Positions 3,384-56,156 are shown, counted from the first letter of the stretch. The stretch is DNA of 64,000 nucleotides from Candidatus Uhrbacteria bacterium (GCA_018673485.1 JABHCP010000005.1:64102-128101); one strand, 5' to 3'. Made by a program: numbers and translations. The notes: generated from the sequence alone by a model not told the origin.

Positions 3384-4373
3384 TTATTTGAGAAGTTTTT
3401 TAAGAGCGTGTTCGATTGCGGGGAAGTGCTCGTACCTGCTTAAGTGATCTGAAAGTTTTGTCCATGCACTGTAATTGAAGGTTGTAATTGCCCCAGCGTA
3501 TACAAGAATGATCGCCGCAGTGATTAGAAGTGATAGGAACGTAACTATCGACATTAGAATATATGATCCAACTGCAAGTGCTACCTCAAAGGCGATACCT
3601 GCTAAGATTGCGAAGCAGATTAAAGCGGTGAATAGTATTCCTGACGTAATGAAATTTATTACAAAAAGTATAAGTGCTAACTCAAACGCTGCTAACCAGT
3701 GATCGCGCAGTAGACTTGTGACATTGTTCATCATTTTACCTAAGCTCATATCCTTTTTGACAAGCTGTATAAGGCAGAGCATTCCAAATATTTGGACGAT
3801 GAACGCGAGTGGTAATGCGATGGTATATATGCCAACGCTCCAAATGGCATCGAGGAATAAGACATCTGTAATTAGCATTCCAAGAGCTAGCGTTGTCAGC
3901 CCGATGATGATAGTGAAGAGAATTCTCATCATTGCATTCACGCTAAACAGTCTTAGGACATGAATGTGATGTAATTTTTTACGAATCATTTTCCAGGTGA
4001 TGTTCTTTGTTCCTTTTGAGATTATAAATAGAAGAATGTATTGCGCCACCAAAGCAAAGAGTGCGATTAATACTAATATCGTAATCGATACAAGGATGTA
4101 TGCAATAAGGTGTGGAGTCTCTAAGAGCGTTAGATTACGAGCGTAGCTAAGCACCCATGAAAAGAATGGGCTGATTTGTTGGAGTGCTGTTGCGTTAAGC
4201 TCTGCCGCGGGTTGCAAGTTTAAGAAGGAACGAATGAGCATGTTAAAAATCGCGCCCGTATGTACGAGTCCGGCAAGTGCGGCGAGTGCCCACCACTCTT
4301 TTTGCGCAAGCGTGATCTCGCAAGCCTTCTTAATAATTTTTATGTAAGTATTCATCGATTTAGCAAGATTCAT
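3384..4373 (-). CDS. polytopic integral membrane protein, 329 aa, immediately upstream of pilB and co-directional
   Basis: Eight to ten hydrophobic helices; no recognisable catalytic motif. Confidence 0.6.
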   Translation of the reverse strand: MNLAKSMNTYIKIIKKACEITLAQKEWWALAALAGLVHTGAIFNMLIRSFLNLQPAAELNATALQQISPFFSWVLSYARNLTLLETPHLIAYILVSITILVLIALFALVAQYILLFIISKGTKNITWKMIRKKLHHIHVLRLFSVNAMMRILFTIIIGLTTLALGMLITDVLFLDAIWSVGIYTIALPLAFIVQIFGMLCLIQLVKKDMSLGKMMNNVTSLLRDHWLAAFELALILFVINFITSGILFTALICFAILAGIAFEVALAVGSYILMSIVTFLSLLITAAIILVYAGAITTFNYSAWTKLSDHLSRYEHFPAIEHALKKLLK

Positions 4374-4520
4374 ATTCCTCCAATTTAAGTTGCTTTCATT
4401 ATATCAAACAATTGACATTTCGGTTAAAATGTTGTATGTTTATTCACTGTTAGTTTGTAAGTGATAGAGTTACAAGTGTTAAAGGTAGCCTTTTATTGTT
4501 AAAACTAAACGATAGAATGC

Positions 4521-4535
4521 CGCTTTTAACAAAAG
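4521..4535 (+). repeat. 15-nt direct repeat gcttttaacaaaaga, left flank of the high-GC cassette
   Basis: Identical 15-mer recurs at 5279..5293 on the other side of the 4604..5200 ORF. Confidence 0.6.
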
Positions 4536-4603
4536 ACAAAATGATAAACGAGGGTGTGCCTCGGAATCAGTGCGTCGGCGGTTCAACTGTAAAGGAGGTT
4601 GTC

Positions 4604-5200
4604 ATGGCGGGTAACTACCCTGTCACAGGCGACCAGTATCGCGACATCGATCGTCGCATGTCCGAGATCAAGCGCCAGCTCAACCAGGACGAAGGTAGTC
4701 CGTCGGATCCTGTAAGAATCCTTCTGGCACTGCAGGGCATCGTTGAAGGCAACTTCGACAACGTGCCCGTTGAGCGTCTGCCCATCATCGACTGCGACGC
4801 CATGCCCTTCATCCCTAACGGTTGGAGTGCAGTAGAGCACCGCAAGGGTGGTCAGATCGAGTTCGATCCGAGCAAGATCGTCCTTCACCTGGAGTCGGAG
4901 CAGCAGCGTAGCACGATCGTTGGCAATGAGCTTCGCAAGCGACTCGAGGGCCAGCCTGTGATGAACGCCAACGTTCTTGATCATCTGCTTGCTAACACCC
5001 GTCTCATCCCCGAGGACTGGAAGGCCGATGAGCAGGGGCGTATCCGCTGCATCTACTTCTGGGGCACCATCTACCGCGACTCCGGCGGCCGCCTGTACGT
5101 TCGTTACTTGTGCTGGAACGATGGTCAGTGGCGCTGGTACTGCAGCTGGCTCGACGATCCGTGGGACAGTCAGCGCCCGGCTGCCATTCTCGCGAGTTAG
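4604..5200 (+). CDS. hypothetical protein (198 aa) in a high-GC cassette; Trp/Cys-rich C-terminus
   Basis: aaaggaggttgtcATG Shine-Dalgarno; GC content far above neighbours; no recognised motif. Confidence 0.55.
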   Translation: MAGNYPVTGDQYRDIDRRMSEIKRQLNQDEGSPSDPVRILLALQGIVEGNFDNVPVERLPIIDCDAMPFIPNGWSAVEHRKGGQIEFDPSKIVLHLESEQQRSTIVGNELRKRLEGQPVMNANVLDHLLANTRLIPEDWKADEQGRIRCIYFWGTIYRDSGGRLYVRYLCWNDGQWRWYCSWLDDPWDSQRPAAILAS

Positions 5201-5249
5201 GCACTTAGGGCTTTGTGACTTGGTTCTTTGTTCTCTAGTTCGTACTTGA

Positions 5250-5325
5250 CCGGCGCAACGTTGTTGTGTCGGTCTCTGCTTTTAACAAAAGAAGCGCGTT
5301 TACGCTTCTTTATTTGTTGAGTGAT
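5250..5325. repeat. about 75-nt boundary module: GC-rich hairpin gaccggcgcaacgttgttgtgtcggtc followed by terminator hairpin aaagaagcgcg-ttta-cgcttcttt
   Basis: About 80% identical copy at 7070..7145. Both lie between a high-GC plus-strand ORF and a low-GC minus-strand gene. Confidence 0.7.
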
Positions 5326-6084
5326 TTACTTCAGTGGTTTGGACATTTTCCACAAGAAATCAAAATATTGTTTGTGGTACTTGGCGATTTCTTTACTACG
5401 AATCGTTGTGCCGATTGGTTGGCTTGTCCAAAGTACAAAGTCCACCTTATCATCGCGTATTTGCATACCCGCAACAGAGGCAAAGTCTGCTGGAAGGATA
5501 CGGACTTTTGTAAAAGGCATATCCTTAATTTGTTCTGCTCGTTTCATTGATCCTTTTGGAAAGATAAAACGTGCTGGTATCTCACGTTGTATGCGTCGCC
5601 TGTGAAAGTCTGCAAGTACAGTTGGAATAAATTCTTTGATGGTTTGTGCATCTTCTGCAAATCCTCCAATAACGTAAAATGTTCCTTTGGTACTAAGCGC
5701 ATCCTCAAATAATGTTTTTAAACCACGCTTGCCCTTGTAGTGAAATACCTCCTGATCTTCTTTGGAGAGCTTTCGCTTTGCCTCGAGCGCAGGGATTATC
5801 TTATTCAATTCTTTTTCTTGAGCCTCAAGCTCTTCTTGTTTTCTTTCAATTACTTTTTTGAGTCGCTTTGGAGTTACCGCTTCAAAGTATTTAGTGTTCG
5901 ACATGATTACATTTGAGACAAGCCCCTTTTTCGCTAGGGAACCAAGACAATCATAAACCTGACCTCGAGAGAGGTTGGTTTTGGAGATAATGTCCTTAGT
6001 CGTCACAGACCCAAGCTCAAGGAGGTTGAGATAGATCGTCGCCTCATTGCCTGTTAGCCCGATTTTCTTTAGAAGTTCTTTCAT
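5326..6084 (-). CDS. TrmB-family transcriptional regulator (N-terminal wHTH)
   Basis: N-terminus GLTGNEATIYLNLLELGSVTTKDIISKTNLSRGQVYDCL matches the TrmB HTH; low GC, native. Confidence 0.7.
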   Translation of the reverse strand: MKELLKKIGLTGNEATIYLNLLELGSVTTKDIISKTNLSRGQVYDCLGSLAKKGLVSNVIMSNTKYFEAVTPKRLKKVIERKQEELEAQEKELNKIIPALEAKRKLSKEDQEVFHYKGKRGLKTLFEDALSTKGTFYVIGGFAEDAQTIKEFIPTVLADFHRRRIQREIPARFIFPKGSMKRAEQIKDMPFTKVRILPADFASVAGMQIRDDKVDFVLWTSQPIGTTIRSKEIAKYHKQYFDFLWKMSKPLK

Positions 6085-6196
6085 ATATTGATTGTCATAC
6101 TACTCCAAGACGACAAGTTTGTCAATGATTCAAGGCTTTGATATCTTTCCAGGCTCGTCCCTTAACAACCGAGCAAAGAAGATGGGAGAGGAAAGC

Positions 6197-6865
6197 ATGT
6201 GTACTAAAAATCAAAATCCTTTCGAGCAGACGGTTGAGGAGCAGCTCGCTGCGCTTCGTCGTCAGAACAAACTTGGTAGTTGGGGCATAGAGGAGAGCGT
6301 ATTTGCACGTCTTGCCAAGACCGCTCCCGAGTGGCCAGAAGGGCGTGATGCTTATAGGAGTTTTCGTATTCGTTTTGGTGAGGGACGTGATGGTGTCATC
6401 AAGACCTTCGAGGCGCATGTCAATGCAGTTAAACATACTCATGACAATTTCTGGCGTTGGAATGGTTTGCTCTCTGGAGAGCATCCGTTCCTTGGAAAGC
6501 AAATAGACCGTCTGCGATTGCTGGCCGGCAATGGCAGTCATGCACCCATGATAGAGTGGATCATTATTCCCGACCTGTCGGCCAACCTGGGACATGGTTC
6601 AATCAACTCCGTACGTGGGGTAAAGTCTCTTGCAGATGCAGGACTTGTAGTGATTTGGCTTGTACCTGACCGGGTGCGTGCGATTGATTATAAAGAGTGG
6701 TGTGCATGGTTCCTTGCTGGCTATGAGGTGAATGAACCCAGAGATTATGTCCAATGGTGGACAAGTGTACCGTGCGTTCAATATAGCCCCCACACGGGGA
6801 CGGGTTTGCAAACTTGGTTGCGTTGCTATCCCAATCCAGGTTTTGCGGCGCCATCAGGCATATAG
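6197..6865 (+). CDS. hypothetical protein in a high-GC cassette, Trp-rich; possibly continued by frame 0 to 7016 through a frameshift
   Basis: ggagaggaaagcATG Shine-Dalgarno. The high-GC coding signal continues in another frame (6732..7016) up to the boundary module. Confidence 0.5.
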   Translation: MCTKNQNPFEQTVEEQLAALRRQNKLGSWGIEESVFARLAKTAPEWPEGRDAYRSFRIRFGEGRDGVIKTFEAHVNAVKHTHDNFWRWNGLLSGEHPFLGKQIDRLRLLAGNGSHAPMIEWIIIPDLSANLGHGSINSVRGVKSLADAGLVVIWLVPDRVRAIDYKEWCAWFLAGYEVNEPRDYVQWWTSVPCVQYSPHTGTGLQTWLRCYPNPGFAAPSGI

Positions 6866-7069
6866 TCTTTGGGGTCGCAACGTCCTTGAAGATCGCGATG
6901 AGTCGTGGAAGCACGTGGTGATCGTCAGCCGTGATCTGCGTGGTTACATGACAAGTCTAACAGCCCGCTTACGTAGTAATGTTTGTCCGTATTACCAAGT
7001 ACCCTCGTTTGAGTAGTATTGTCCGCGAGTGATATAATTGATAATACTTAAAACTTACCCGCTTTCTCA

Positions 7070-7145
7070 GACTGGCGTGACGTTGTTGCGTCGGTTTTTG
7101 TTTATATCAAAAGAAGCGCTTTCGCGCTTCTTTATTTGTTGAGTG
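7070..7145. repeat. about 75-nt boundary module, copy 2; also serves as the ftsH terminator
   Basis: See 5250..5325. Confidence 0.7.
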
Positions 7146-7147
7146 GG

Positions 7148-9043
7148 TTACTCCTTTGACTCTGTAGCTTTTGGTCCCATGAGCTCTTCGAATCTTTCTT
7201 TCTCGATAGTTTCTTTCTCCAGTAGTTCTGCAACTGTATTTTCTATCTTGTCTTGGTTTTCTTTAATCACCTTGTTTGCAGTTTCGAGTGCTTCGCTTAC
7301 TAGTCGTAGGATCTCTTCATCGATTAGTTGAGCGGTATTCTCGGAATAGTTGCGTCTGTCTTTGATTTCCTTTCCAAGGAACACTAGGTCTTCTCGTTCT
7401 CCGTATGTTCGTGGTCCCATTTTTTCACTCATTCCGTATTGAGTGATGAGGTTTTGTGCGAGTTTTGTTGCACGTTGCAAATCATTTGATGCACCAGTAG
7501 TAATGTCACCAAAAGTTGATTTCTCAACTGCGTACCCGGCAAGCATCATAGCGAGCTCATCGATAAATTCTGCACGGAAGTGCATCTTGCGGTCCTCACT
7601 TGGCAAACTCATTGTGTAACCAGCAGCTCGCCCGCGTGAGATTATTGATATCTTGTGCACGTCATCACAGTGCGGAAGCATGTGGCCAACAATCGCGTGT
7701 CCTGCCTCATGGTACGCAGTAATTTTCTTTTCTTTTTTAGAAAGGATGCTGCTCTTGCGCTCAGGTCCGAGCATAACTTTTTCAATAGCGTCCAAAATGT
7801 TCTTTTGTGCAATAATTTTTTTGTTGTGGCGTGCTGCGAGAATCGCACCTTCGTTCATGATGTTCATCAGGTCCGCTCCAGAGAATCCAACAGTACGTTC
7901 GGCAACGCGTTGAAGATCAACGCTTTCCTCGAGCGGTTTGCCTTTGGCATGAATTTCAAGAATCGCTTTTCTGTCTTTAAGTCCTGGGAAGTCAAGAGTG
8001 ATTCTTCGATCAAATCGTCCAGGTCTCAAAAGCGCTGGATCAAGTACGTCTGGTCGGTTGGTTGCGGCGATTACGATAATTCCGTTGTTTGGAGAGAACC
8101 CATCCATTTCTACCAAAATCTGGTTTAGTGTTTGCTCACGTTCATCATTTCCACCACCAAGCCCGGCGCCACGCTGACGTCCAACTGCATCAATCTCATC
8201 AATGAATACTATGCACGGTGATGCTTTCTTTGCTTTTGTAAATAAGTCACGCACACGTGATGCTCCAACTCCAACAAACATTTCTACAAACTCGGATCCG
8301 GAAATGTGGAAGAAGGGAACATTGGCTTCTCCTGCCACAGCTCTTGCGAGCAGTGTTTTACCAGTTCCTGGAGGACCCATCAGCAAAACTCCTTTTGGAA
8401 TTTTTGCTCCTACCTCTGCATACTTTTTTGGATGCTTTAGAAAGTCGACAACCTCAGTTAGTTCTTCTTTTGATTCTGCTTCTCCGGCCACGTCCTTAAA
8501 TGAAACACGATCTTTTTTACTAGTTACTTCTTTTGCTTTTGACTGACCAAATGTCATGGCCTTGTTGTTCGCTCCTTGCATTTGATTGATCAGGAACCAG
8601 AAGATTACCAAGAAACCAATTAGGAAAATCAGTGTTGGCAAAATTGATCGCAATAGTGAGATCCACATACTTGGCTCGACAACCTGAATGTTTACCGCTG
8701 AGAGTTCCTCACTAGTGATTCCGTAATTGGTAAGTAAATCAGAAAGTGATTCACCAGACTCTTTTTTTACTTCAAACTCAGTTTCATCAAGCGCGAAGAT
8801 CTTTAGTGTATTTTCCTCGATTTCAATGCGGTCGATTTCTTGATTGGTAATTTTCTCAACAAGAGTACTTGTACCGATTACTTCCGGTTCATCGCCGTTA
8901 AGGTTATATGATGAAAAAATGACTCCCAATGCTAATACGACAAGGAAGAAAATGATTAAGTTTTTTGATAGTGGCTTCATAGGTATTATAGTTATAGCGT
9001 CCTTTAGCGCCTGCATGATGCCAAAAAACAGGGGTTTTGGCAA
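7148..9043 (-). CDS. ftsH: ATP-dependent zinc metalloprotease FtsH
   Basis: N-terminal TM helices; AAA Walker [27 protein letters not shown] region; HEAGHAIVG zinc motif. Confidence 0.95.
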
Positions 9044-9120
9044 CCTTGATTAAAATGCACTTAATAAAGCAAGAGACACCCGGGGTGGGGTGTCGAGACG
9101 TGGGGCCGTTTGGTGGCTGG

Positions 9121-9396
9121 CTAGGTTGCCAGGTAGAGTTTGGCCCTATTTGCGTTGAGCTTGAAGCCACGGGAGAGAACGCCAAATACCTTGATGAGAA
9201 TCGCCGAGACGAGCAGGGTGCTTACCATGAAGCCGACAGTCGTGATTACCAGCGCTGGGTCGGCTTGTTGGATGACCATTGGGCTCATCAGTCCGATGAG
9301 GGCGAGTACGCCAATGACAACGCTTGTGCTGGTCGCGTAGACCGCGATGCTCACAAAGAGGCATAGGCCATCGATAATTTGGTTTGTGCGGTTCAA
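9121..9396 (-). CDS. small membrane protein (91 aa), TTG start, high-GC island
   Basis: aaaggagcgcaccTTG Shine-Dalgarno; two or three TM helices. Confidence 0.45.
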   Translation of the reverse strand: MNRTNQIIDGLCLFVSIAVYATSTSVVIGVLALIGLMSPMVIQQADPALVITTVGFMVSTLLVSAILIKVFGVLSRGFKLNANRAKLYLAT

Positions 9397-9883
9397 GGTG
9401 CGCTCCTTTGCAAATGTGAGGTATAGGCTGAATCCTTATTCAAATCATACCTCACTTTTGCAGACCAGGAAACTTAGCAGGAATGGGAGATTATGTCAAC
9501 CGTCTACGATGTATCTCATCTTTTTCAGCATTAGCCCTATTGGGGGTATTTCATCCCCCAAACCCCCTGACATACTTTCTTTGTTGGCTCAAAGAAAGTA
9601 TGCAAAGCCATGGCGGAGCCAGGTCCGGCTCCGCCGGAAAAAAGCCTTTTCAGAGTGTCCCACGGCCGCAAAGAATGATGCGGCCTGCAGTCAATGTTTT
9701 TTGGGTGACCATGAATGGACTGATTGCCAGTTCGGTCGGCAGGCTCCTTCTCAGACGGGGTGATTTGACAATGAATGAACGGGGGGCTAACTACTGAAAC
9801 ATTGCCGGGGGACTTGGATTGAAGAAATAAAAAGCAAAAGAACCGCCTTGGGGCGGTTCTTTTTAAGGTCTTGGATTCTGCGA

Positions 9884-11278: not shown

Positions 11279-11387
11279 ATATTGTGCCTGGCGCCGACAA
11301 TATATAGATATTGCGGGCAGCAGGTATTAATAATTAGTTATTTGTTGAACGTCGGAAGTGTAGCGTTTTGGCCAAATATTGTCAATA

Positions 11388-11448
11388 TGCTAAGGTTCAA
11401 CCAATCCTGATGCGCACCTTTGCGCACATGAACATGGAGGTCAGGATG
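11388..11448 (+). promoter_or_regulatory. conserved leader of HAD paralog 1: hairpin ATCCTGA...ggaggTCAGGATg that pairs the start codon region
   Basis: About 90% identical to 12433..12494; the inverted repeat includes the start codon. Confidence 0.55.
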
Positions 11449-12351
11449 TCCTTTAAGATCGTGGGCGTAAAGTCGCTTGCAGAGCTCGAGGAGCTTTTGT
11501 GCACGAAGGGTGAGGACGAGCAGATTCTGGCTGTCAACCTTACCCTTACCAGTATCCAGAAGTTCTTCGCGGCTTTTGTGGCGGCGGTAGTGGCCGCATT
11601 TGACTTCGATGGCACTGTAACGGCGCATAGTCAGTTTACAGCTCTTCGTAACAACACGAAGACCATGACACGGGCCATGGCAGAGGAGGATGAGGCAGAT
11701 GCAATGTCGTACTTCGGTGGCGGCATTCTCTCTGACTACGGCCACATCTCGTTCATCTTCCGTACAGTTCGGCGCATGCTGTCTGCACGGTTGGATCGCA
11801 ATGACTTCAGGGAAGCAGTTACGGAGATCAAGCCGCGTCCTGGGGCTATTGAGCTGATGCAGACGTTTTTGCCACGGATGGCTGGAGCGATCGCTATCAT
11901 TTCTTACGGACTGTGGGACGTGATTCGTATCTGGACAGACTTCTACGCTTACCATGTTGTGCGTAGCGATGCGATCCACGCTCTCAAGCTTGATTGGAAG
12001 CGTGACATGCTTGATGGGTGTCAGCTCACCACTGTTGTCAGCGATGGCAACAAGGGCCATCGATTCGCTGTGCACTGCGCGCTCAATGAAGTGGAACCTA
12101 AGACAGCGATCGTGATCGGCGATTCACCCATTACCGATTTGTCCATGCTCCGTATGGGAATTGGTGTTCTGCTGATCCCCAATACCGAGAAGGTGTTGAG
12201 GAATATCAAGAAGCAGGAGGCGGAGATGCGCGCTGACCACCGTGTTGGCCCCTTCCTTGCACCTGCGTTCATGCATGTGCAGGCGTTTTTCCTCTCGGAC
12301 GATCTGACCCCGCTTGCGAAGATTCGTTTGGGTGAGATCACGTGTGACTGA
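11446..12351 (+). CDS. HAD-superfamily hydrolase-like protein, paralog 1 (high GC)
   Basis: Motif I FDFDGTVT, motif IV-like VIGDSPITD; ggaggtcaggATG Shine-Dalgarno. Confidence 0.6.
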   Translation: MSFKIVGVKSLAELEELLCTKGEDEQILAVNLTLTSIQKFFAAFVAAVVAAFDFDGTVTAHSQFTALRNNTKTMTRAMAEEDEADAMSYFGGGILSDYGHISFIFRTVRRMLSARLDRNDFREAVTEIKPRPGAIELMQTFLPRMAGAIAIISYGLWDVIRIWTDFYAYHVVRSDAIHALKLDWKRDMLDGCQLTTVVSDGNKGHRFAVHCALNEVEPKTAIVIGDSPITDLSMLRMGIGVLLIPNTEKVLRNIKKQEAEMRADHRVGPFLAPAFMHVQAFFLSDDLTPLAKIRLGEITCD

Positions 12352-12432
12352 TCCGATCAGTCAATTTCTACCCCGTGCTAGCCTCTCAGGCCGGCGCGGG
12401 TCTTTCGCTTTTTTTTGGGAAATGAAAAGGCT

Positions 12433-12494
12433 ATGCTAAGGTTCAACCAATCCTGATGCGCATTGTCGCGCACATGAACACGGAGGTCAGGATG
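12433..12494 (+). promoter_or_regulatory. conserved leader of HAD paralog 2 (same hairpin)
   Basis: See 11388..11448. Confidence 0.55.
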
Positions 12495-13412
12495 TCCTTT
12501 GATATCGCTGAGGCACACAATTATCTTGCATTGATCAATCGGATTGGGGACATGAGGGAGGGTGAGGTTTTGCTGGTTGTTAACCGGCAGGTTACGACGC
12601 CTGAGATTGCGCTTGCGGGCATTCGTGATGCTGAACTGTGTGTCTCGGACTATGATGACACAATGACACTTAAGGGTCAGTATCTGATTATGGGCGAACA
12701 TTTGATGCGCGATGGTCGTGGTGATGAGGACCTTGCCGATGCGATGCGGGTCTTTCACGGTCAGCATGTGACTCCTTCGGATGTGATGAGACTCATTGGT
12801 CGTTCTATGGGGCGGTTGATCGAGTCGCGTCTTGGGATGGCTGAGTTTCAGCATGCCGTGCAGCATGCAAAGCCTCGGTCAGGAGTTCATGAGCTTATCC
12901 TAAGCTTTGAGGATCAATCCAAGGTTGACGATCCATTTGTAGTCGTTACCTCTGGAACGCGTGATTGGGTTCAAGCCTGGGAGACACACTATTTGTCATT
13001 ACCATCTACCCTTCGAGTGCATGGCTTGAAGCTCAAGTGGAGTAAGGCTGGCGCCCGTCAGCTGCTTGGCTGTGATATTGAGACCATGGTTTGCGTGCAG
13101 AACAAGGCGGTCAAGGTTGCTATGGAGGCTACGCGTTGCAACCTTTCGATAGGTCAGGTTATGACGGTTGGGGATTCGCCACTGATCGACCAGACCTTGT
13201 TGACAGCCGAGTTGATTCGAGGATCTGACGGGCAGGTGGTTCGCCCTGGTGTGCATGGTGTGCTGCTGATCGAGGATTGTCAGACAGCTCTAAACCATCC
13301 GCATGGAAAGCACCATATGCGTGCGGCATTCGATGCTGGCGTGCCTATGTTCTTGATCTCTCCGTCGCTCGTGCCCCTCGCGCAGATTCGGCGTGGTGAG
13401 ATCACCGCGTAA
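12492..13412 (+). CDS. HAD-superfamily hydrolase-like protein, paralog 2 (diverged from paralog 1)
   Basis: Motif I SDYDDTMT, motif IV TVGDSPLID; same C-terminal ...IRxGEIT; same 3' element cccgtgctagcctctcaggccggcgcggg after the stop. Confidence 0.6.
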   Translation: MSFDIAEAHNYLALINRIGDMREGEVLLVVNRQVTTPEIALAGIRDAELCVSDYDDTMTLKGQYLIMGEHLMRDGRGDEDLADAMRVFHGQHVTPSDVMRLIGRSMGRLIESRLGMAEFQHAVQHAKPRSGVHELILSFEDQSKVDDPFVVVTSGTRDWVQAWETHYLSLPSTLRVHGLKLKWSKAGARQLLGCDIETMVCVQNKAVKVAMEATRCNLSIGQVMTVGDSPLIDQTLLTAELIRGSDGQVVRPGVHGVLLIEDCQTALNHPHGKHHMRAAFDAGVPMFLISPSLVPLAQIRRGEITA

Positions 13413-14301: not shown

Positions 14302-14331
14302 AGTACGCAGTTCACAGTGCTCAGTATGCAG
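14302..14331 (+). repeat. tandem heptamers agtacgcag-ttcacag-tgctcag-tatgcag between stop codon and terminator
   Basis: Same architecture after gyrA, trxA and fusA. Confidence 0.6.
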
Positions 14332-19747: not shown

Positions 19748-20248
19748 GTGTGTTCACATCAGAAACCAGAGGAGAGATTCTTGGCACTTATCGAAGTCGT
19801 TATCAAGACCCGCGTGGCTATCAGCTCCAAGCGAGCAGACTCCATCCGTCGTGGCCTACTCCACATCCTGTGCATGCGTACTGAGGGCCGTATTCGGCAA
19901 AGCCTCAGTGACATGCCTGATGAGCGGGTTCTGCGCGTGCGCTTCTTCAGACGCGACGCTATGCGCGTCACGGTCACTCAGACCGAACCTATCTTGGGGG
20001 ACCGCTGGCTGGTTACCAAGGACGGGCTGGTCGACGAGATCGATCGCTTCTTCCGTAGCGTGATCAACAGCGACCTGCACATGGTCTCTCAGTTCTCGGC
20101 GCAGTGGATCTTCAAGGGCGAAGGCGCATCTGACGACTCCGAGGAGGTCACTGAGCCGTCGATCGATACACCGATCTCCATTGGTGGTCGTCAGGCTTTC
20201 CGCAGGCGCATGGTCGGTGCATACAGCCGTCTGGGCAGTGAGGTTTAG
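19748..20248 (+). CDS. hypothetical protein, high-GC cassette
   Basis: Consistent high-GC coding frame; the true start may be the internal TTG near 19775 after aggagag. Confidence 0.45.
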   Translation: MCSHQKPEERFLALIEVVIKTRVAISSKRADSIRRGLLHILCMRTEGRIRQSLSDMPDERVLRVRFFRRDAMRVTVTQTEPILGDRWLVTKDGLVDEIDRFFRSVINSDLHMVSQFSAQWIFKGEGASDDSEEVTEPSIDTPISIGGRQAFRRRMVGAYSRLGSEV

Positions 20249-20251
20249 CCT

Positions 20252-20593
20252 ATGGTGGGGGAAGATACTCAAGTGCCCGTTTTCACTATCGAAGTTGCCG
20301 CTGCTAGAACAGGAGGCTCTGTAGAGCTACGCCTGGCTCTGATCGCGGTGATACGTGAAGAAGGTGGCTACCCAACTGATATCTGGACCAATGAGATGCT
20401 TTTGTCGCTTTTCTACAGGCGAAGGAAGGGGGTAAGACCTACTGCGGAGATTCGTCAGAACTACCGCCCAGGTGACATCTGGCTTGTAGGATTTGACGAT
20501 TCGACCCTGCTTGAGCTCATGCTCAAGCAGGTGTTGCAGGAGCGCCTCGACATTGGACCGACGTACATTTCCGTTAAGTGTGGGCGCAATTAG
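20252..20593 (+). CDS. hypothetical protein, high-GC cassette; start overlaps the previous stop
   Basis: Coding frame; terminator gccgacctccgggtcggcttt follows. Confidence 0.45.
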   Translation: MVGEDTQVPVFTIEVAAARTGGSVELRLALIAVIREEGGYPTDIWTNEMLLSLFYRRRKGVRPTAEIRQNYRPGDIWLVGFDDSTLLELMLKQVLQERLDIGPTYISVKCGRN

Positions 20594-28388: not shown

Positions 28389-28430
28389 AATGTTTCACAT
28401 AAGCGACGATCGTCGCTTATGTGAAACATT
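28389..28430. repeat. 42-nt perfect palindrome aatgtttcacataagCGACGATCGTCGcttatgtgaaacatt between two terminators
   Basis: Related copy at 46164..46201 with compensatory changes in the middle arm. Confidence 0.7.
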
Positions 28431-28509
28431 TAGAGATTGAAAAACCGACCCACGTGGGGCCGATTCTTTTTATATTTATTTTAACTCTACCCCTCGACGG
28501 GCTCGGGAC

Positions 28510-34665: not shown

Positions 34666-34696
34666 CAGTACGCAGTGCTCAGTTCACAGTATGAAG
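34666..34696 (+). repeat. heptamer CAG repeats (cagtacgcag-tgctcag-ttcacag-tatgaag) after the trxA stop, before the terminator
   Basis: Same heptamers as at 14302, in a different order. Confidence 0.55.
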
Positions 34697-37195: not shown

Positions 37196-37350
37196 TGATT
37201 CTATCGATTCGATTCCCCCTACTTTTTAAGGAGGGGATAGGGGTGGTTATTAAATAGTTTCATTTAAAAAAGCAACAATCCCGGACATTCAAGTCCGGGA
37301 CACGACTGACACCGCGAGGGTCAGTTTTTGATATTGTAGGTCGCGCGCTA

Positions 37351-37452
37351 GTTGCACACATAGACGTAGGTCACCAGACCAAGCCCCACGCACGCGAGGC
37401 TGATCGGGACGATGTTCGTGGTCACCCAGAGGCAAATGCGGTAGATCATGAG
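37351..37452 (-). CDS. possible 33-aa hydrophobic micropeptide (MIYRICLWVTTNIVPISLACVGLGLVTYVYVCN)
   Basis: ggag Shine-Dalgarno 7 nt upstream; own terminator downstream on the minus strand; speculative. Confidence 0.25.
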
Positions 37453-37581
37453 TAGCTCCAGGTAGGAGATTGGGAGGGGATACATTCACCTTGCCGTATA
37501 CAGGCGAGTTTGTCAAAAGCAAAAAACCACACCCGAGAGCGCAGTTCTTGCGCCTGTCCGATTCGATCGGACGGGGTGTGG

Positions 37582-37830
37582 TTAGGGGGTGCGGCCTCCC
37601 TTGAGGTTCATCCGTAGGAACACGATGAGAGCACATGCGGTGAGCAGGCCTGGGAAGAAGGCGGCCCAGCCGCAGGCCTCGGCGTAGCTCCCGGAGGTGT
37701 CCACCAGGTGCATCTGAGTGGTCAGACCACCGAGCATCTGCAACGGGACCTTGATGAAGAACAGGCAGAGCATGGCAACCACGAAGCCACCAACGAGGTC
37801 TACCAAGTGCTGAGTAATATCATGTGTCAT
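37582..37830 (-). CDS. small membrane protein (82 aa), high-GC cassette
   Basis: ggagggcttcATG Shine-Dalgarno; two TM helices. The terminator includes palindrome gtccgattcgatcggac (37577..37593). Confidence 0.45.
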   Translation of the reverse strand: MTHDITQHLVDLVGGFVVAMLCLFFIKVPLQMLGGLTTQMHLVDTSGSYAEACGWAAFFPGLLTACALIVFLRMNLKGGRTP

Positions 37831-37959
37831 GAAGCCCTCCAGGCTTTCAGGGTACCAAGCAAGCTATCATGATTTTTACCTTTTGTCAACCCCTAAAGGC
37901 ACGCAAAAAACAATCGATCGCACTCAGTTGAGCGCGATCGAGATGTGACATAGGTGTAC

Positions 37960-38346
37960 CTAGCCCTGGGGACATACGCGGAACTCTTCCGCGTCACCCA
38001 GGGTAAGGTGGCGTGAGTCGAGGCCGTTCTGGAGCCAAAGGCGAGCCTGGTGCCCGCAATGCACCGTGGTGCCAATGAAGCAGCCGTAGCCTGCGCTGCA
38101 TCCTAGCGACATAGCGGCATTGTAGATTCTGCCACTTGAGATCTCGTAGTACGAGGTCTCGTCGTTGAGGTAGACTGCTAGGCGGTTCGGCTCGCTATCA
38201 TTGTACTCGATGCCGGCCTTGCAGTTCTGCTTGCCCCACAAGCAGTTGGCGGTGCTGGTGTCGAGGACCAAGCGGGTCGTCTCGTCCATCGGCTTGTTAC
38301 AACCGACGAGCATGAGAAGGGCCATGGTCAGGAGTCGAAAGGTCAT
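37960..38346 (-). CDS. cysteine-rich secreted lipoprotein (lipobox LVGC), high GC
   Basis: Signal peptide MTFRLLTMALLMLVGC; 10+ cysteines in the mature part. Confidence 0.5.
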   Translation of the reverse strand: MTFRLLTMALLMLVGCNKPMDETTRLVLDTSTANCLWGKQNCKAGIEYNDSEPNRLAVYLNDETSYYEISSGRIYNAAMSLGCSAGYGCFIGTTVHCGHQARLWLQNGLDSRHLTLGDAEEFRVCPQG

Positions 38347-38489
38347 GTGGGCTCCGAAGAGAGGGGGTTGAAGAGAGGGCGTTGGGGTCGATGGTCGACA
38401 GCGAAGAATAGCAGATTTCATTGATTTTGTCAACGATTGTGGTGTAAAACCTTCCCAAATATCTGCATTTTCGATAAACTTAATCCATT

Positions 38490-41486: not shown

Positions 41487-41526
41487 AGTCTAATTTTGGC
41501 CAATAATCGCGCTTTTTGTCTTGACA

Positions 41527-41560
41527 AAAGCGCGATTTTATGTTATATTTATATCCACCT
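41527..41560 (+). promoter_or_regulatory. sigma70-like promoter TTGACA-17-TATATT overlapping the leuS terminator hairpin
   Basis: aatcgcgctttttgtcTTGACAaaagcgcgattttatgtTATATT. Confidence 0.5.
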
Positions 41561-41583
41561 TCAAAACCGGACCGGAGGAATTC

Positions 41584-41892
41584 ATGTCCATTCGTACTCT
41601 CACCACGCGCTTCATCTCAGGCGTCCATACGGCTCTTCTTGTTGGGCTGGCACTAGTGGCAGTGGTCTGCTTGCTGTTGTCGTTTAGCTCCGCCGTTGAC
41701 GTCGTGGGCGTTCAAGACATCACCTGGGACAAGTATGGAGCGATGTACTCTGCCTTTGCCGTAGTGATATGCTTTATCGCGACGATCGTGCTCGAGGGGG
41801 CGTCCTGGGCCATCGGTTTGTCGATCAAGCCCTCGCTCATCGCGCTGATCAAGGGGGCTGTGCGTAACACGACCCACAACGTGGGTCGCTGA
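41584..41892 (+). CDS. small membrane protein (102 aa), high-GC cassette
   Basis: ccggaggaattcATG Shine-Dalgarno; three TM helices; terminator ccgccctggttcaccccagggcggtttgttgtt at 41925..41957. Confidence 0.45.
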   Translation: MSIRTLTTRFISGVHTALLVGLALVAVVCLLLSFSSAVDVVGVQDITWDKYGAMYSAFAVVICFIATIVLEGASWAIGLSIKPSLIALIKGAVRNTTHNVGR

Positions 41893-46164: not shown

Positions 46165-46201
46165 GTTTCACTAACTCGACGATCGTCGAGTTAGTGAAAC
46201 C
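46164..46201. repeat. 38-nt perfect palindrome ggtttcactaactCGACGATCGTCGagttagtgaaacc directly after the stop codon
   Basis: Related to 28389..28430. Confidence 0.7.
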
Positions 46202-46272
46202 TTGTGTGCTTGATTGTTTTGTGTATTATTGCTATATTTCGGGCGAAAATAATGTGAAATTAAATATATTTT

Positions 46273-49744: not shown

Positions 49745-50140
49745 AAAGTAATACCCACCGGACACGAGGTCCGGTGGGTGAAGTTTTGCGGTGCCTTTCG
49801 GCGCCGCGTGTACCATCTGGGCATGATCTCGATCAGGCCGATCCATTCAGACTTCCACATCACGACTTTGCTGTGTGGCTTTTTTTGTTTTGCCTACGGT
49901 TTATCCGATTCACAGTTATTACGCTCAGTTTCGGTCAACGCCTGCCTCTGACTTTAGCGGGCTGTCGAAGTTCGTGCTCAGTAAGGTGATACGGCTTTCT
50001 CGGGCGGGGTTGGGCTAGTTCCCAGTGCGGTCGCTTTCGCAATGCAACGCGTTCGCGCTGACGCCCCAAAGGGCGATTTCCATGTAGTTGCTCATGGCTC
50101 GATTAGTATAAATCGAAATGTATAAAGATTCAATAAAAGC

Positions 50141-50196
50141 AGAACGACCCCACAGCGCTTAGTAGCGGTGCGGGGTCGGAGTCGTAGAGATGTTCG
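50141..50196 (-). terminator. terminator module agcagaacgaccccac with hairpin ccccacagcgcttagtagcggtgcgggg
   Basis: Second copy of the module at 51404..51445, after the next minus-strand gene. Confidence 0.6.
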
Positions 50197-51342
50197 CTAG
50201 AACATCATGGCGTTGCCCGTGAGAGGGATGCCATCGATGAGGTCGCCGTAGAAGGTGTCGCTGCCAGCGGCGTAGTAGCTCCACTCCAGATCGGTGACGT
50301 TGAACTGGGTCGAATCATCGCTGGCAGCACTTGCTCCTGTGGAGTCGAAGTACAGCGAGTAAGTGTACGTAATGCCAGCATTGACGATCTCGCCGAGGTT
50401 TCCGATCACGGCGTAGTCCAGGATGTCACTAGGTGCCGAGGAGCACTCGGTGCCGTCGGCGGTGTGGAAGCTCCAGTCGAGGTCGGCGTCGAGCTCCAAG
50501 CTGGTGCCGTACATGTTCAGGTTGTAGACCGCAAACCAGGCGGGGTCGGCGAGCATGGCACAGGTGTTCCAGCCAGTACCGGCGTTGTCCGTGGAGTTGA
50601 ACTCGAAGGTGAAGCCATCGAGCGGGTCAATGTCGCCACCGGAGTCGGCGCTGAGGTTGAACCGCAGTACTTCTTGCATACCGGGGATGCTCGTGCCCGA
50701 GGGGCTGTAGGAACTCAGAGCGATCGTCGGCTCGGTGATGTGCCAAACCATCTCGGTACCCTCGACGTAGTCGGTCATGGCGCGGTGGTTGTAGCTGTTT
50801 CCGCTGTAGATGCCCGTGGCCACGGCTCCTGCGTCGGACCAGTTGAGCTGCATGGTCATGCCGGGTGTGGCGACGGTCTCGGCGGTGGCGACCACGTAGA
50901 CTGCCATGATCGCGCGGCTACGTGCACAGCGCGGGATGTACATGTCCTCGTTGATGAAGGTAGCGGTGCCTCCCGAGGAGAGCGCCGCACTTGACGTGAC
51001 CAGCGATCCGCTGGTGTCCCTGTATTCCACGGTCACCGCATAGACGGTCTGGTGATCACCGTCGTTCTCGAGCACGAAGTCCATGAGTCCCAGTCGCTCG
51101 CCACTCGAGCAGAATTGGAAGATGCTCACGACCTGTCTGTCACCTGCGAGGATGATGTTCTCGCTCATGGCCGGGTGGCCAGAGACGCGCATACGCGACC
51201 GACGTGGCGGCGGCGCTGCAGTCGGCGCGGACTTCTCGTTCGCGACTGACTCATCAGCGTAGTGGTTGAACATCGGCTCGATCGGGCTGCACGCGACAGC
51301 CAGGATCAGGACCAGGAAGGAGAGAAGGGTCAGGTGTCGCAT
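50197..51342 (-). CDS. secreted lipoprotein (lipobox LAVAC), Ser/Thr/Gly-rich, high-GC cassette
   Basis: Signal peptide MRHLTLLSFLVLILAVAC; no catalytic motif recognised. Confidence 0.55.
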   Translation of the reverse strand: MRHLTLLSFLVLILAVACSPIEPMFNHYADESVANEKSAPTAAPPPRRSRMRVSGHPAMSENIILAGDRQVVSIFQFCSSGERLGLMDFVLENDGDHQTVYAVTVEYRDTSGSLVTSSAALSSGGTATFINEDMYIPRCARSRAIMAVYVVATAETVATPGMTMQLNWSDAGAVATGIYSGNSYNHRAMTDYVEGTEMVWHITEPTIALSSYSPSGTSIPGMQEVLRFNLSADSGGDIDPLDGFTFEFNSTDNAGTGWNTCAMLADPAWFAVYNLNMYGTSLELDADLDWSFHTADGTECSSAPSDILDYAVIGNLGEIVNAGITYTYSLYFDSTGASAASDDSTQFNVTDLEWSYYAAGSDTFYGDLIDGIPLTGNAMMF

Positions 51343-51472
51343 GACGTTCCTTAGTCAAGCTCGGCATTGAGCGCGCTAAAAATAGCGCTTTTTTTGCTTT
51401 TTGTCAATGCTAGAAGCAGAACGACCCCACGCCGTGTGTGGCGGGAGGTCGAGGGGAGTGGTGATCGAGTTT

Positions 51473-51841
51473 CTAGCCCAGCGGCAACTGTTCGGGCGGG
51501 CCTTCGGATTCGTAGTCGTTGACGAAGTCATCCTGCGGCAGTGTGGGCGGGCCTTCACTCGGGATGCACTGTTCCATGAGCTTGGGGCGGTGTTTCTCGA
51601 ACGCTGTGATGACGAGCTTGATGTGGTTCGTGAAGTTCTGATCTGACATGTAGTTGGACATGAACCAGCCCCACATCTCATCGATAATCTCATCGGTGAT
51701 GTACCAAGATTCAACCATCATGGCGAAATCTTTGGCTGCATGCTCGCAGCTATATTTCTTTCCTTTATACTTGAGTTGAGCTTTGCGTCTGCTCAGGTAG
51801 ACATCGACGAGTAGTCTGATTAACCAGTTGATGAGTTTCAT
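51473..51841 (-). CDS. hypothetical protein; 5' half AT-rich, 3' half GC-rich
   Basis: ORF with a composition shift in the middle; weak. Confidence 0.35.
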   Translation of the reverse strand: MKLINWLIRLLVDVYLSRRKAQLKYKGKKYSCEHAAKDFAMMVESWYITDEIIDEMWGWFMSNYMSDQNFTNHIKLVITAFEKHRPKLMEQCIPSEGPPTLPQDDFVNDYESEGPPEQLPLG

Positions 51842-51963
51842 GTGTACCTCAGGGTTGGGGGGAAGAGCAGTTTTGCGAACAGAGCAATGTAGCCTAATTT
51901 TAGCATAAAGTCAAGGGAATGCTAGCGGTACTCGTAGGGTCGATAGGATAGCCGAAAAGTGCC

Positions 51964-52002
51964 GGCAACCCCCTCCAGCTCCCCCTTGGGAAGGGGGAGA
52001 GT
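51964..52002. repeat. GC-rich hairpin element, copy 3 (ggcaaccccctccagctcccccttgggaagggggag), upstream of rpsL
   Basis: See 1512..1550. Confidence 0.7.
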
Positions 52003-55225: not shown

Positions 55226-55230
55226 AAATA

Positions 55231-55263
55231 GTACGCAGTTCGCAGTGCTCAGTACACAGACAG
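55231..55263 (+). repeat. heptamer CAG repeats (gtacgcag-ttcgcag-tgctcag-tacacag-acag) after the fusA stop
   Basis: See 14302. Confidence 0.55.
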
Positions 55264-55429
55264 AATAAAAGAACTCGTCGAGTGATCGGCGGGTTTTTTG
55301 TATACGCACTTGTTATCCCCGACCCCGAGCGGGGATCCATCAGCTATCGATCTTGATCTTGGTTTTATTACGTGCTAATCTCACTTTCCGTTCCATGTGG
55401 TGCAAACCACGCAACTCAAGGAGGCTTTC

Positions 55430-55837: not shown

Positions 55838-56156
55838 GGATAGACCTAGTTCTAAAAGATCTTTCAGCGCTCCGCTCTCATGCGGGCGCTTTTGCTTCTA
55901 TGAAAATATTTTTCATTAAGGTCGCGATCGGCCCTTTAGTGAAAAATATTCATGCTTCAAATGTGTAACGATCGCGTCAAATGTGAAGCATGAAGAAAAA
56001 AAGTTTTCCACACTTTGTTTTTGATTTTTGAGTTAACTTTATACAATGAATAGTGCTGACTGGGTCAATGTAGTGGGAAAACCCTTGCTGGGGTTTATTG
56101 TCAAACAGGCCAACGTGGCAGTGGTAGGGTTCAACCCAGCGATCTAGGAGGTCGTT

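Follow-up and report, generated by a model that had tools for sequence, protein, structure and literature searches.

Two GC-rich genes lie on the plus strand of the window (the whole stretch of DNA that was analysed, 64,000 nt), and each is convergent with a native minus-strand gene across a copy of the same 83-nt block. The genes adjoining these two cassettes encode a TrmB-family regulator, FtsH, a T2SSE ATPase, and a 329-aa protein of unassigned function, with the TrmB gene separating the cassettes. The features of the locus are as follows.

4412-4440, plus strand: promoter-like site TTGACA-17-TATGTT, from a consensus scan only, upstream of the leader.
4477-4531, plus strand: three-tiered leader hairpin at the 5' end of cassette 1, folding as RNA with -20.3 kcal/mol (z -5.0).
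4522-4536, plus strand: left copy of a 15-nt repeat (15-mer), its first 10 nt forming the 3' strand of the leader basal stem.
4604-5200, plus strand: cassette 1 CDS, 198 aa, a family-1 DGR variable-protein (target) gene.
5073-5196, plus strand: VR homologue of cassette 1; the TR of the related locus L011 aligns to 5073-5184 at 77%.
5201-5247, plus strand: spacer leading from the stop codon to hairpin 1, composed of CTTNG repeats with a period of 7-8 nt.
5248-5330, plus strand: module copy 1, ending at the TrmB stop codon (5326-5328).
5248-5274, plus strand: hairpin 1 (T1) of copy 1, a 12-bp stem with a 3-nt loop, then TCTGCTTTT.
5278-5292, plus strand: right copy of the 15-mer, comprising the T1 U-tract and the 5' flank of T2.
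5288-5311, both strands: T2 of copy 1, bidirectional, AAAGAAGCG...CGCTTCTTT.
5326-6084, minus strand: TrmB-family HTH regulator (PF01978, E 5.8e-16), native and convergent with cassette 1.
6197-6865, plus strand: cassette 2 CDS, an N-terminally truncated family-2 DGR target gene, 222 aa from the ATG.
6735-6878, plus strand: segment A, an insert of ~144 nt that supplies the present C terminus and the stop codon (6863-6865).
6879-7016, plus strand: segment B, the detached ancestral VR, out of frame and 3' of the stop codon.
7070-7152, plus strand: module copy 2, with hairpin 1' at 7069-7097 and T2' at 7110-7133, ending at the ftsH stop codon (7148-7150).
7148-9043, minus strand: ftsH (Peptidase_M41, AAA, and FtsH_ext domains), native and convergent with cassette 2.

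The GC content of the neighbouring genes was 0.41-0.43, versus 0.57 for cassette 1 (GC3 0.70; both values measured on the longer TTG-start ORF, 4496-5200) and 0.49 for the cassette 2 region (6092-6865). The GC-rich ORFs are discrete units of foreign appearance, in line with the earlier description of them as cassettes, and relatives carry the same gene families in different slots. The cassette 1 protein matched exactly the NCBI protein HN358_04495 of Candidatus Uhrbacteria; it gave no hit in Pfam and no sequence match among solved structures. Its AlphaFold2 model had a pLDDT of 88, the best Foldseek match against the PDB had an E value of 0.39, and several C-type lectins were among the top matches, none of them significant.

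The families to which the two genes belong are DGR target families. Family 1 comprised 315 homologues, all from Patescibacteria where the source names them, and family 2 comprised 78, mostly 263-292 aa long and nearly all from Patescibacteria on the same basis. In the alignments of both families, the C terminus was hypervariable, with the variation confined to the C-terminal ~40 residues and AAC/AAT-type TR codons. In the family-1 locus L011, 19 of the 23 mismatches between VR (6461-6593) and TR (6942-7074) fell at TR adenines, and the locus carried an RVT_1 reverse transcriptase (RT, 7474-8520) plus Avd on the minus strand. A full RT was located ~850-900 nt downstream of the target in 11 of the family-1 loci examined (L011 and 10 others), and most long family-1 loci had no RT. 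In the family-2 locus L099, which also carries bAvd (PF22296), 14 of 15 mismatches between VR (6703-6838) and TR (7164-7299) were at TR adenines.

Within the 64-kb window, no RT was detected (tblastn with the L011 RT, best E 0.69), nor any Avd, nor a TR for either 5073-5196 or 6879-7016; the window also had no copy of a motif that is conserved 3' of the targets in RT-linked loci. Cassettes 1 and 2 are therefore orphan or remote targets. As no cognate TR or RT was found in the window, either gene may or may not have been diversified in this genome, now or in the past. The variable regions are probably inactive at present. Remote DGR targets are known, and a CPR DGR set has been described (Wu et al. 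2018, PMC5758913), as has a Patescibacteria-restricted DGR clade 2 (Roux et al. 2021, PMC8144416); large-scale surveys of DGRs detect only those targets that lie beside an RT and explicitly miss remote ones (PMC8144416). Like remote targets such as the Treponema denticola tvpA paralogues, the genes described here have a 3' end that is a TR-homologous VR, belong to families tied elsewhere to RT, Avd, and a TR with adenine-specific differences, and can be distant from an RT or lack an adjacent one. Unlike those targets, they have no cognate TR or RT in the 64-kb window, the VR does not vary among assemblies, the VR of one gene has dropped out of the reading frame, and no Pfam model exists for either family. 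The C-type-lectin matches of the cassette 1 model were not significant.

Cassette 1 is an intact transcription unit, consisting of the promoter-like site, the leader hairpin, a CDS ending in the VR, the CTTNG spacer, and a putative terminator. The order of promoter and then leader hairpin was the same in L011, L099, and L095. The cassette 1 leader aligned with those of target genes of both DGR families in 7 other genomes (8 in all), and 12 of the 23 pairs of the consensus showed compensatory changes; Rfam had no match for this hairpin. When the cassette 1 VR was compared with the heterologous L011 TR, 50% of the TR A positions differed, versus 18% of the non-A positions. The last 140 nt of the CDS (5061-5200) contained 14% A on the sense strand, compared with 33-35% in three of the four native genes used for comparison. 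The VR and module copy 1 were identical in 8 other assembled contigs. After the stop codon, 4 CTTNG units were found in 50 nt (5201-5250); the 75 unique target loci gave 2.97 units per 50 nt, shuffled sequences 0.38, and control regions 0.23.

Cassette 2 is decayed: the N terminus and the leader are missing, and the insert of ~144 nt separates the VR from the frame. The first-pass annotation had placed this cassette at 6197-7016, a span that is not a single ORF: the frame stops at 6865, and 6879-7016 lies in another frame. The JGI call for this gene is 246 aa with a start at 6125, and the protein lacks the N-terminal ~45 aa of family 2. Segment B was recognized by a tblastn match to the family-2 C terminus in another frame and by its resemblance, at the nucleotide level, to the VRs of L094 and L095 and to the TR of L099 (z 9-10). 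Segment A was weakly VR-like (z 1.4-4.5) and had no homologue in any fetched related locus. The two segments were also considered as a VR/TR pair, which was rejected: they had no nucleotide similarity (score 37.0 vs a shuffle mean of 37.6).

The block that follows both genes recurs as an ungapped 83-nt module (5248-5330 and 7070-7152) with 83% identity, in agreement with the earlier estimate of about 80%. As had been noted, both copies stand directly before a native minus-strand gene, and each ends at its stop codon (TTA on the plus strand); the similarity stops ~2 nt past the stop codons of these two unrelated housekeeping genes, encoding the TrmB-family protein and FtsH. As plus-strand RNA, the whole module folded with -34.7 and -31.7 kcal/mol in the two copies (z -5.1 and -4.0), and both stem-loops were called terminator-like, consistent with the proposed make-up of a GC hairpin plus a terminator. 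A search for further copies found none beyond the two sites in the window, in related loci, or in viral contigs. Within the window, the hairpin pattern and the terminator tail each occurred only at these two sites with up to 3 mismatches allowed (~0 expected), a covariance model of the hairpin found only these two copies significant in 484 kb (window plus related loci), and Rfam gave no match for the module.

The T1 hairpins had plus-strand RNA folds of -19.2 kcal/mol in copy 1 (z -5.1) and -14.4 kcal/mol in copy 2 (z -4.3), followed by the tails TCTGCTTTTA and TTGTTTATAT. All five stem substitutions that distinguish copy 2 from copy 1 keep plus-strand pairing (G.U or G-C). The minus-strand RNA of copy 1 folded with -10.1 kcal/mol; in copy 2, neither the minus-strand RNA fold nor the DNA fold of either strand was significant, the DNA value being only -3.3 kcal/mol (z -0.7). 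Hairpin 1 is thus conserved as plus-strand RNA and not as DNA, which argues against a DNA recombination site. T2 has a stem of 9-10 bp, a plus-strand tail of ATTTGTTGAG, and a minus-strand tail of UUUUGUU. The terminator scan called T2 terminator-like on the plus strand only, and the minus-strand RNA fold showed the same stem followed by UUUUGUU; as it is placed between an A-run and a T-run, T2 can serve both strands. Both T1 and T2 have the features of intrinsic terminators, namely a stable stem-loop and then a U-rich tract, 3' of a stop codon, and by these features both would be expected to function as terminators. In having a stem-loop and then a T-run directly after stop codons, they resemble the intrinsic and bidirectional terminators of convergent genes. 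Unlike ordinary terminators, the two stand in tandem and were probably copied as one 83-nt block between unrelated gene pairs, which is unusual.

The 3' flanks of family 1 contained a strong hairpin in 41 of 71 cases, a median of 57 nt after the stop codon and with a 12-bp stem, and 88% of these strong hairpins had a T-rich tail. The layout of two hairpins after the VR was also found in L011. Sequence homology between hairpin 1 and the other family-1 3' hairpins was not significant (covariance-model E 0.1-0.2), and the likeness is positional and architectural only. The idea that the module homology continues 5' of hairpin 1 into a family-1 gene-end remnant (TCCGCGAGTGA ... ACTTAAAACTT) was also rejected, 395 of 500 shuffles scoring equally well. 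Other duplicated terminator or leader modules were present in the window (a 17-nt terminator tail at 50137 and 51414, and repeats D11 and D13), and tandem target arrays with such modules occurred in L081, L088, and L016. Neighbouring target or GC-rich genes thus repeatedly share duplicated modules of this kind.

We considered whether hairpin 1 is instead a DGR target-recognition hairpin, with one remote DGR serving both targets in trans and any terminator role secondary. In the Bordetella phage DGR, an inverted repeat after the VR is needed for efficient retrohoming, the structure of the stem matters and its sequence does not, and inverted repeats are nearly always present after VRs (Guo et al. 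2011, PMC3240598). Hairpin 1 is similar in being a GC-containing inverted repeat after the VR whose stem drifts while pairing is kept; it is shared by targets of two families at 83% identity with every stem change preserving pairing, and a remote location of such targets has precedent (PMC5758913). However, the published consensus is a GC-rich stem of 7-10 bp with a 4-nt GRNA loop, 4-34 bp after the VR, in the form of a DNA hairpin or cruciform (PMC3240598), whereas hairpin 1 has a longer stem of 12-13 bp, a 3-nt non-GRNA loop (GTT), a start 47-52 nt after the stop codon, and a U-tract behind it. It is also conserved as plus-strand RNA with G.U pairs rather than as DNA, with copy 2 lacking a DNA fold on either strand, and GRNA fits only 4 of the 22 four-nt loops in the family. 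Furthermore, each of the two VRs would require a TR of its own, translation no longer extends to the VR of cassette 2, and 8 other assemblies show no variation in the VR. Taken together, these observations make a recognition hairpin an unlikely explanation.

The 15-mer GCTTTTAACAAAAGA is an exact direct repeat on either side of the cassette 1 ORF, with copies at 4522-4536 and 5278-5292. The first-pass annotation was right that the repeat is perfect; its coordinates (4521-4535 and 5279-5293) were each 1 nt off, in opposite directions. The concern that the 15-mer might be a common genomic word does not apply, as only these two copies were found in 64 kb, even with 2 mismatches allowed. In block shuffles, the expected number of exact direct repeats (at least 15 nt, no more than 1.5 kb apart) was 0.105 per window; 7 were observed, the other 6 being paralogous or tandem duplications. 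At this expectation, a chance origin of the recurrence is unlikely. The left copy lies inside the leader hairpin, which is conserved in both families and 8 genomes and has the consensus GCTTTCAAC at this position in other genomes; the right copy, read on the minus strand, is the U-tract of the TrmB terminator. Being a strand of the leader hairpin, the left copy is internal to the cassette and not a duplicated native target, which speaks against its interpretation as a target-site duplication or att core. At the other cassette junction, no equivalent of the repeat was found, cassette 2 having no such flanking repeat. The leader 5' arm can pair with either copy, which would let the 5' end of the transcript pair with its 3' end. 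With ~0.1 expected per window, it is not entirely satisfactory to regard the repeat as two functional A/T-rich elements that happen to coincide.

In the surroundings of the locus, all contigs carrying it were from the same strain, at or near 100% identity. A slot that varies among strains was rejected: contigs with an identical TrmB were ~100% identical in DNA, and the apparent differences in neighbours were artefacts of gene calling, one an antisense 133-aa ORF and the other an alternative start. A search of genome contigs for an empty site with the TrmB gene as anchor returned only a 29%-identical Wolfebacteria match. L098, in which TrmB is 82% identical, has unrelated genes in both slots; its homology spans only 5325-6125, and the intergenic DNA is too diverged for comparison. 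Family-2 genes were found in different slots of one syntenic block in L094 and L095. L095 contains a truncated DGR cassette of 1475 bp between sharp 33-nt repeats, the left copy being the 3' end of the native ClpP gene. This insert includes its own promoter region, which disfavours insertion by retrocopying of an mRNA. Six loci had flanking repeats of at least 15 nt, versus 0 in a reversed control; as a general mark of target cassettes they were rejected, 4 of the 6 being leader or 3'UTR duplications of tandem paralogues, and L095 was the only one of the 6 to duplicate a native gene end.

These data bear on the proposal that cassette 1 is a mobile insert with a 15-bp target-site duplication or att core, the module marking a preferred insertion site at terminators. 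The exactness of the 15-mer, its two copies placed on either side of the ORF, and its low chance expectation agree with this proposal, as do the real duplication of this kind in L095, the different slots of family-2 genes within one syntenic block, and the other genes in both slots of L098. Against it, the cut would split a cassette-borne structure into a native and an inserted part, leaving the promoter and the leader 5' arm beyond the limits of the insert; no such repeat flanks cassette 2; and most loci with flanking repeats owe them to tandem paralogues. No inverted repeats were found from end to end of cassette 1 beyond those implied by the leader hairpin and the 15-mer, and the single ORF without a Pfam hit means that the cassette has no recombinase. 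Integron gene cassettes are similar in that each consists of one promoter-proximal ORF of foreign composition with an imperfect hairpin behind it. Unlike them, this locus has no integrase among the adjoining genes, no attI, and no one-orientation array; cassette 1 has its own promoter-like site and leader; and, unlike attC, the hairpin is without the R''/L''-L'/R' organization and copy 2 without a single-stranded DNA fold. We regard the mobile insert as very unlikely.

Even less credible is that the module represents a REP-, MITE-, or BIME-like small dispersed repeat inserting at gene 3' ends independently of the cassettes. This would fit a compact, structured, intergenic unit in more than one copy in a genome with several other short intergenic repeat families (D3, D8, and D11). 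We consider it extremely improbable: the 64 kb contain just two copies, no other copy was found in related loci (484 kb) or viral contigs, reading of the module sequences revealed neither terminal inverted repeats nor a flanking duplication, and both copies take the same functional position between a DGR target gene and a convergent gene.

The interpretation that we consider likely is that the cassettes are stand-alone DGR target genes, that the module is a convergent-terminator block, and that the 15-mer is not an insertion scar. In this model, both genes would be DGR target genes of the Patescibacteria type, and the variable slots that they occupy would lie among the housekeeping genes of a marine Candidatus Uhrbacteria. 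The T1 hairpin, formed in plus-strand RNA and followed by a U-tract, would end the target-gene mRNA, and the bidirectional T2 hairpin would end that of the convergent gene, which encodes the TrmB-family protein or FtsH. The two copies of the module probably arose by duplication: the 83-nt block may have been copied from one locus to the other, with later substitutions leaving both hairpins intact. Its presence at both loci may reflect an insertion hot spot at shared terminators or a piece carried by the cassettes.

A broader possibility, which we hold to be highly doubtful, is that Patescibacteria DGR targets are self-contained, mobile, GC-rich cassettes with structured ends, of which three repeats would be the footprints of dispersal or exchange. 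The 5' end would be the three-tier hairpin and the 3' end the CTTNG array plus hairpin, and the process would seed remote or orphan targets beside housekeeping genes. The footprints would be the leader 3' arm repeated after the terminator, the 83-nt block common to two unrelated targets, and the 33-nt duplication of the ClpP 3' end in L095.

Under the preferred interpretation of stand-alone target genes with a convergent-terminator block, cassette 1 serves as a warning that an exact 15-nt flanking repeat can occur where there is no insertion scar. The GC excess of target genes over their flanks had a median of 12 percentage points and exceeded 5 points in 29 of 39 loci; since this excess is general among targets, caution is warranted in reading GC islands of CPR genomes as recent transfers from high-GC donors. 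GC-rich ORFs without Pfam hits between the core genes of a streamlined CPR genome can be recognized as orphan DGR targets by family membership alone. The leader hairpin shared by two families, the CTTNG array directly after the VR, and the plus-strand RNA terminator may provide search handles for such genes and are candidates for a cis function in DGRs.

The two GC-rich ORFs, cassette 1 (4604-5200) and cassette 2 (6197-6865), are unrelated to each other, and neither has a Pfam match. Cassette 1 had 315 homologues, all from Patescibacteria wherever a source names the organism, and the annotation of a Candidatus Uhrbacteria MAG includes a protein identical to its product. The alignment of this family (family 1) showed a fixed scaffold and a hypervariable C-terminus, FWGTIYRDSxGxLxVRYLxWxxGxWxWxxxWLxxxWxxxxPAAVxAS. 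Cassette 2 belongs to a second family (family 2; 78 matches, mostly 263-292 aa, nearly all Patescibacteria), the C-terminus of which is also hypervariable. A homologue in the related locus L011, 66% identical to the cassette 1 product, lies within a textbook diversity-generating retroelement (DGR), and locus L099 carries a family-2 member. Their variable regions (VR), template repeats (TR), and accessory genes (Avd) are as follows.

L011 (family 1), VR 6461-6593 and TR 6942-7074, 19 of 23 mismatches at TR adenines
L011, minus strand, Avd
L011, reverse transcriptase (RT), 348 aa, RVT_1
L099 (family 2), VR 6703-6838 and TR 7164-7299, 14 of 15 mismatches at TR adenines
L099, adjacent bAvd

Because these family members sit with VR/TR pairs biased toward TR adenines, both cassettes are DGR target genes. 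The gene order in this DGR clade is target(+), TR(+), avd(-), RT(+), and a full RT was located approximately 850-900 nt downstream of the target in 11 loci (metagenome-scan loci and L011). Most long family-1 loci had no RT, and no RT, TR, or Avd was found within the 64-kb window. In RT-linked loci such as L048, L062, L091, and L099, a conserved motif, GGTAGTAGGTGAATAYGYG, lies 100-150 nt past the target stop codon (about 6915-7000 in L099), preceded by a TATACT or TAAAAT -10-like box. This motif, which was absent from the window, may indicate where the transcript carrying the TR begins. In L099, a tRNA gene (5619-5690) precedes the promoter-like site of the DGR target cassette by ~130 nt.

The L011 TR aligned to window positions 5073-5184 (77%). 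Compared with this heterologous TR, the cassette 1 VR differed at 50% of adenine positions versus 18% of others. A made up 14% of its sense strand, whereas the share was 33-35% in three of four native genes used for comparison. The excess of differences at adenine positions and the low A content are consistent with past adenine mutagenesis. Eight other contigs from several sequencing projects (L001-L006, L008, and L014) carried exactly this VR and the first module copy (5248-5330), and the single difference among the contigs checked for mismatches was at window position 2863. At the consensus level, the cassette 1 VR is frozen.

Cassette 2 has decayed: the leader and the N-terminal ~45 residues typical of the family are missing, and its true VR homologue (6879-7016; z 9-10 at the nucleotide level against family VRs and a TR) is out of frame, beyond the stop codon at 6863-6865. 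The present C-terminus is supplied by a ~144-nt segment (6735-6878), for which no relative was detected. This insert parts the family-2 gene body from the ancestral VR surviving downstream, and the C-terminus that it encodes is weakly VR-like.

Cassette 1 carries a three-tier leader hairpin at 4477-4531 (-20.3 kcal/mol, z -5.0). In seven other genomes, DGR target genes of both families, the proteins of which are unrelated, carry the same hairpin in their leaders, placed between a promoter-like site and the ribosome-binding site. The hairpins aligned were the following.

Window, 4478-4530
L011, 5878-5929
L012, 5880-5932
L015, 1312-1364
L081, 3133-3185
L094, 4868-4919
L095, 2322-2375
L099, 5878-5931

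The consensus structure, GTTGAAAGTGGCGTTTTG..GGC....GCC..CAAAACGCCGCTTTCAAC, comprises 23 pairs, of which 12 show compensatory changes; its G.U pairs are in the plus sense. Directly 3' of the VR (5201-5247 in the window) is an A-poor (16% A) CTTNG array with a 7-8-nt period. Over the first 50 nt past the target stop codon in 75 related loci, CTTNG occurred 2.97 times per 50 nt, compared with 0.38 for shuffled sequence and 0.23 for control regions. No such array was seen after the TR in L011 or L099 or after the surviving VR segment of cassette 2 (6879-7016). Neither the leader hairpin nor the array had an Rfam match.

The first-pass annotation had described a GC hairpin and terminator module that occurs twice, each time abutting a native minus-strand gene, and this anatomy was confirmed. 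The copies, 5248-5330 and 7070-7152, are 83 nt long and align ungapped with 83% identity; the abutting genes encode a TrmB-family HTH regulator (PF01978) and FtsH, and similarity dies out ~2 nt past the stop codon. Pattern searches allowing up to 3 mismatches revealed no more copies in the window, and with a covariance model, these two alone were significant in 484 kb (window and related loci). The parts of the module are as follows.

Hairpin 1, each module, stem of 12-13 bp with a GTT loop, then a T-rich tract
Hairpin 1 of copy 1, RNA, plus strand -19.2 kcal/mol (z -5.1), minus strand -10.1 kcal/mol; DNA, plus strand -9.7 kcal/mol, minus strand -6.0 kcal/mol
Hairpin 1 of copy 2, RNA, plus strand -14.4 kcal/mol (z -4.3), minus strand -4.2 kcal/mol; DNA, no fold (plus strand -3.3 kcal/mol, z -0.7)
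Hairpin 2, each module, AAAGAAGCG...CGCTTCTTT, with an A-run on one side and a T-run on the other
Module end, 15 more bases reaching the stop codon of the minus-strand gene

Hairpin 1 is a plus-strand RNA structure. Reading of the module alignment and folds showed that the copies differ at five stem positions, each time by a transition on one side of the stem (G-C to G.U or A-U to G.U) that preserves pairing in the plus sense only. Since TCTGCTTTT or TTTTGTTT comes after it, hairpin 1 is best read as a predicted intrinsic terminator that serves the target gene. Hairpin 2 is predicted to be able to terminate in both directions and is the sole terminator available to either trmB or ftsH. A hairpin after the target is typical for the family: a strong hairpin (12-bp stem, median 57 nt past the stop codon) was present in 41 of 71 family-1 3' flanks, 88% of these strong hairpins had a T-rich tail, and L011 likewise has two successive hairpins. 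The identity between the modules also covers non-structural spacer bases, suggesting that they share their origin by duplication, not convergence. The module could mark an insertion hot spot at shared terminators or be carried by the cassettes.

The window holds further cases in which neighbouring GC-rich genes share a duplicated terminator or leader module (a 17-nt tail and repeats D11 and D13), and tandem target arrays with similar duplicated modules were present in loci L081, L088, and L016. The 17-nt terminator tail, GTGGGGTCGTTCTGCTT (minus strand), follows two tandem GC-rich genes (50137-50153 and 51414-51430). A 46-nt hairpin, 91% identical, was observed at two islet borders 50 kb apart (1505-1550 and 51957-52002). 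Two intergenic elements have three copies each: palindromes GTTTCAC..CGATCG..GTGAAAC (28392-28440, 46165-46213, and 55954-56002) and the 30-mer AGTACGCAGTTCACAGTGCTCAGTATGCAG (14302-14331, 34667-34696, and 55230-55259).

The 15-nt repeat around cassette 1, GCTTTTAACAAAAGA, is real, direct, and exact (4522-4536 and 5278-5292), although its coordinates had been given 1 nt off. It is not a common genomic word in the window, in which no third copy was found with up to 2 mismatches permitted. Exact direct repeats of 15 nt or longer, with copies no more than 1.5 kb apart, numbered seven versus 0.105 expected from block-shuffled windows, and the remaining six are pieces of duplications, either paralogous or tandem. 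In the leader hairpin, the left copy makes up the 3' strand of the basal stem, where the alignment with the seven other genomes gave the consensus GCTTTCAAC; because this hairpin is conserved in target genes elsewhere, the left copy is internal to cassette 1. The right copy provides the hairpin 1 U-tract (GCTTTT) together with the A-rich sequence 5' of hairpin 2, and the TrmB terminator has its U-tract there on the minus strand. The proposed reading as a target-site duplication or att core is not supported, since the left copy is cassette-internal, cassette 2 has no flanking repeat, and neither a recombinase nor terminal inverted repeats independent of the leader hairpin were found. The repeat, with a chance expectation of ~0.1 per window, is accounted for only in part. 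Because the right copy has the sequence of the leader 3' arm, the leader 5' arm (4477-4504) is complementary to 5276-5294, 775 nt downstream (13/15 and 10/12), so that the cassette 1 transcript could pair its 5' end with its 3' end.

In a broad sense, the cassettes are mobile, as indicated by slot differences, a 33-nt repeat in L095, unrelated genes in a TrmB relative, and the GC excess of targets. Family-2 genes in two genomes occupy differing slots of the same SMC-DHH-ClpP-VanW-HSP20 block (L094 and L095). In L095, a 1475-bp truncated DGR cassette, comprising the target gene and apparently the initial ~150 nt of the stretch that precedes the TR, lies between sharp 33-nt direct repeats (2103-2135 and 3578-3610; 32/33 identical), the left copy being the native end of the ClpP gene, stop codon included. 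A ~110-nt intergenic block between ClpP and VanW is conserved (L094 ~7850-7965 and L095 ~3897-4007), and the L095 block had no Rfam match. The genome with an 82%-identical TrmB has unrelated genes in both slots. The GC contents of the two cassette ORFs are 0.57 and 0.49 versus 0.41-0.43 in neighbours, and in 29 of 39 loci from other genomes, target-gene GC was over 5 points above that of the flanks (median excess, 12 points). None of this evidence shows the route by which the window cassettes arrived, and the search of related contigs yielded no empty site. In this 45%-GC genome, the window has about 11 islets of small ORFs (49-61% GC, GC3 up to 0.82), most without a Pfam match and two being tandem HAD paralogues.

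GC islets, 139-1555; 4496-5200; 6092-7016; 9037-9763
GC islets, 11368-13412; 19748-20593; 37289-38433; 41521-41892
GC islets, 50197-51841; 55340-55789; 56157-56405

The published DGR hairpin/cruciform is formed by DNA, with a 7-10 bp stem and a GRNA tetraloop 4-34 bp from the VR (PMC3240598). The family-1 3' hairpins and hairpin 1 do not match this consensus, and GRNA was found in 4 of 22 family tetraloops; a second role of the hairpins in retrohoming is possible but not indicated. Non-adjacent DGR targets (PMC5758913) and a Patescibacteria-restricted DGR clade (PMC8144416) have been described, and the window cassettes are non-adjacent, or orphan, targets of this clade.
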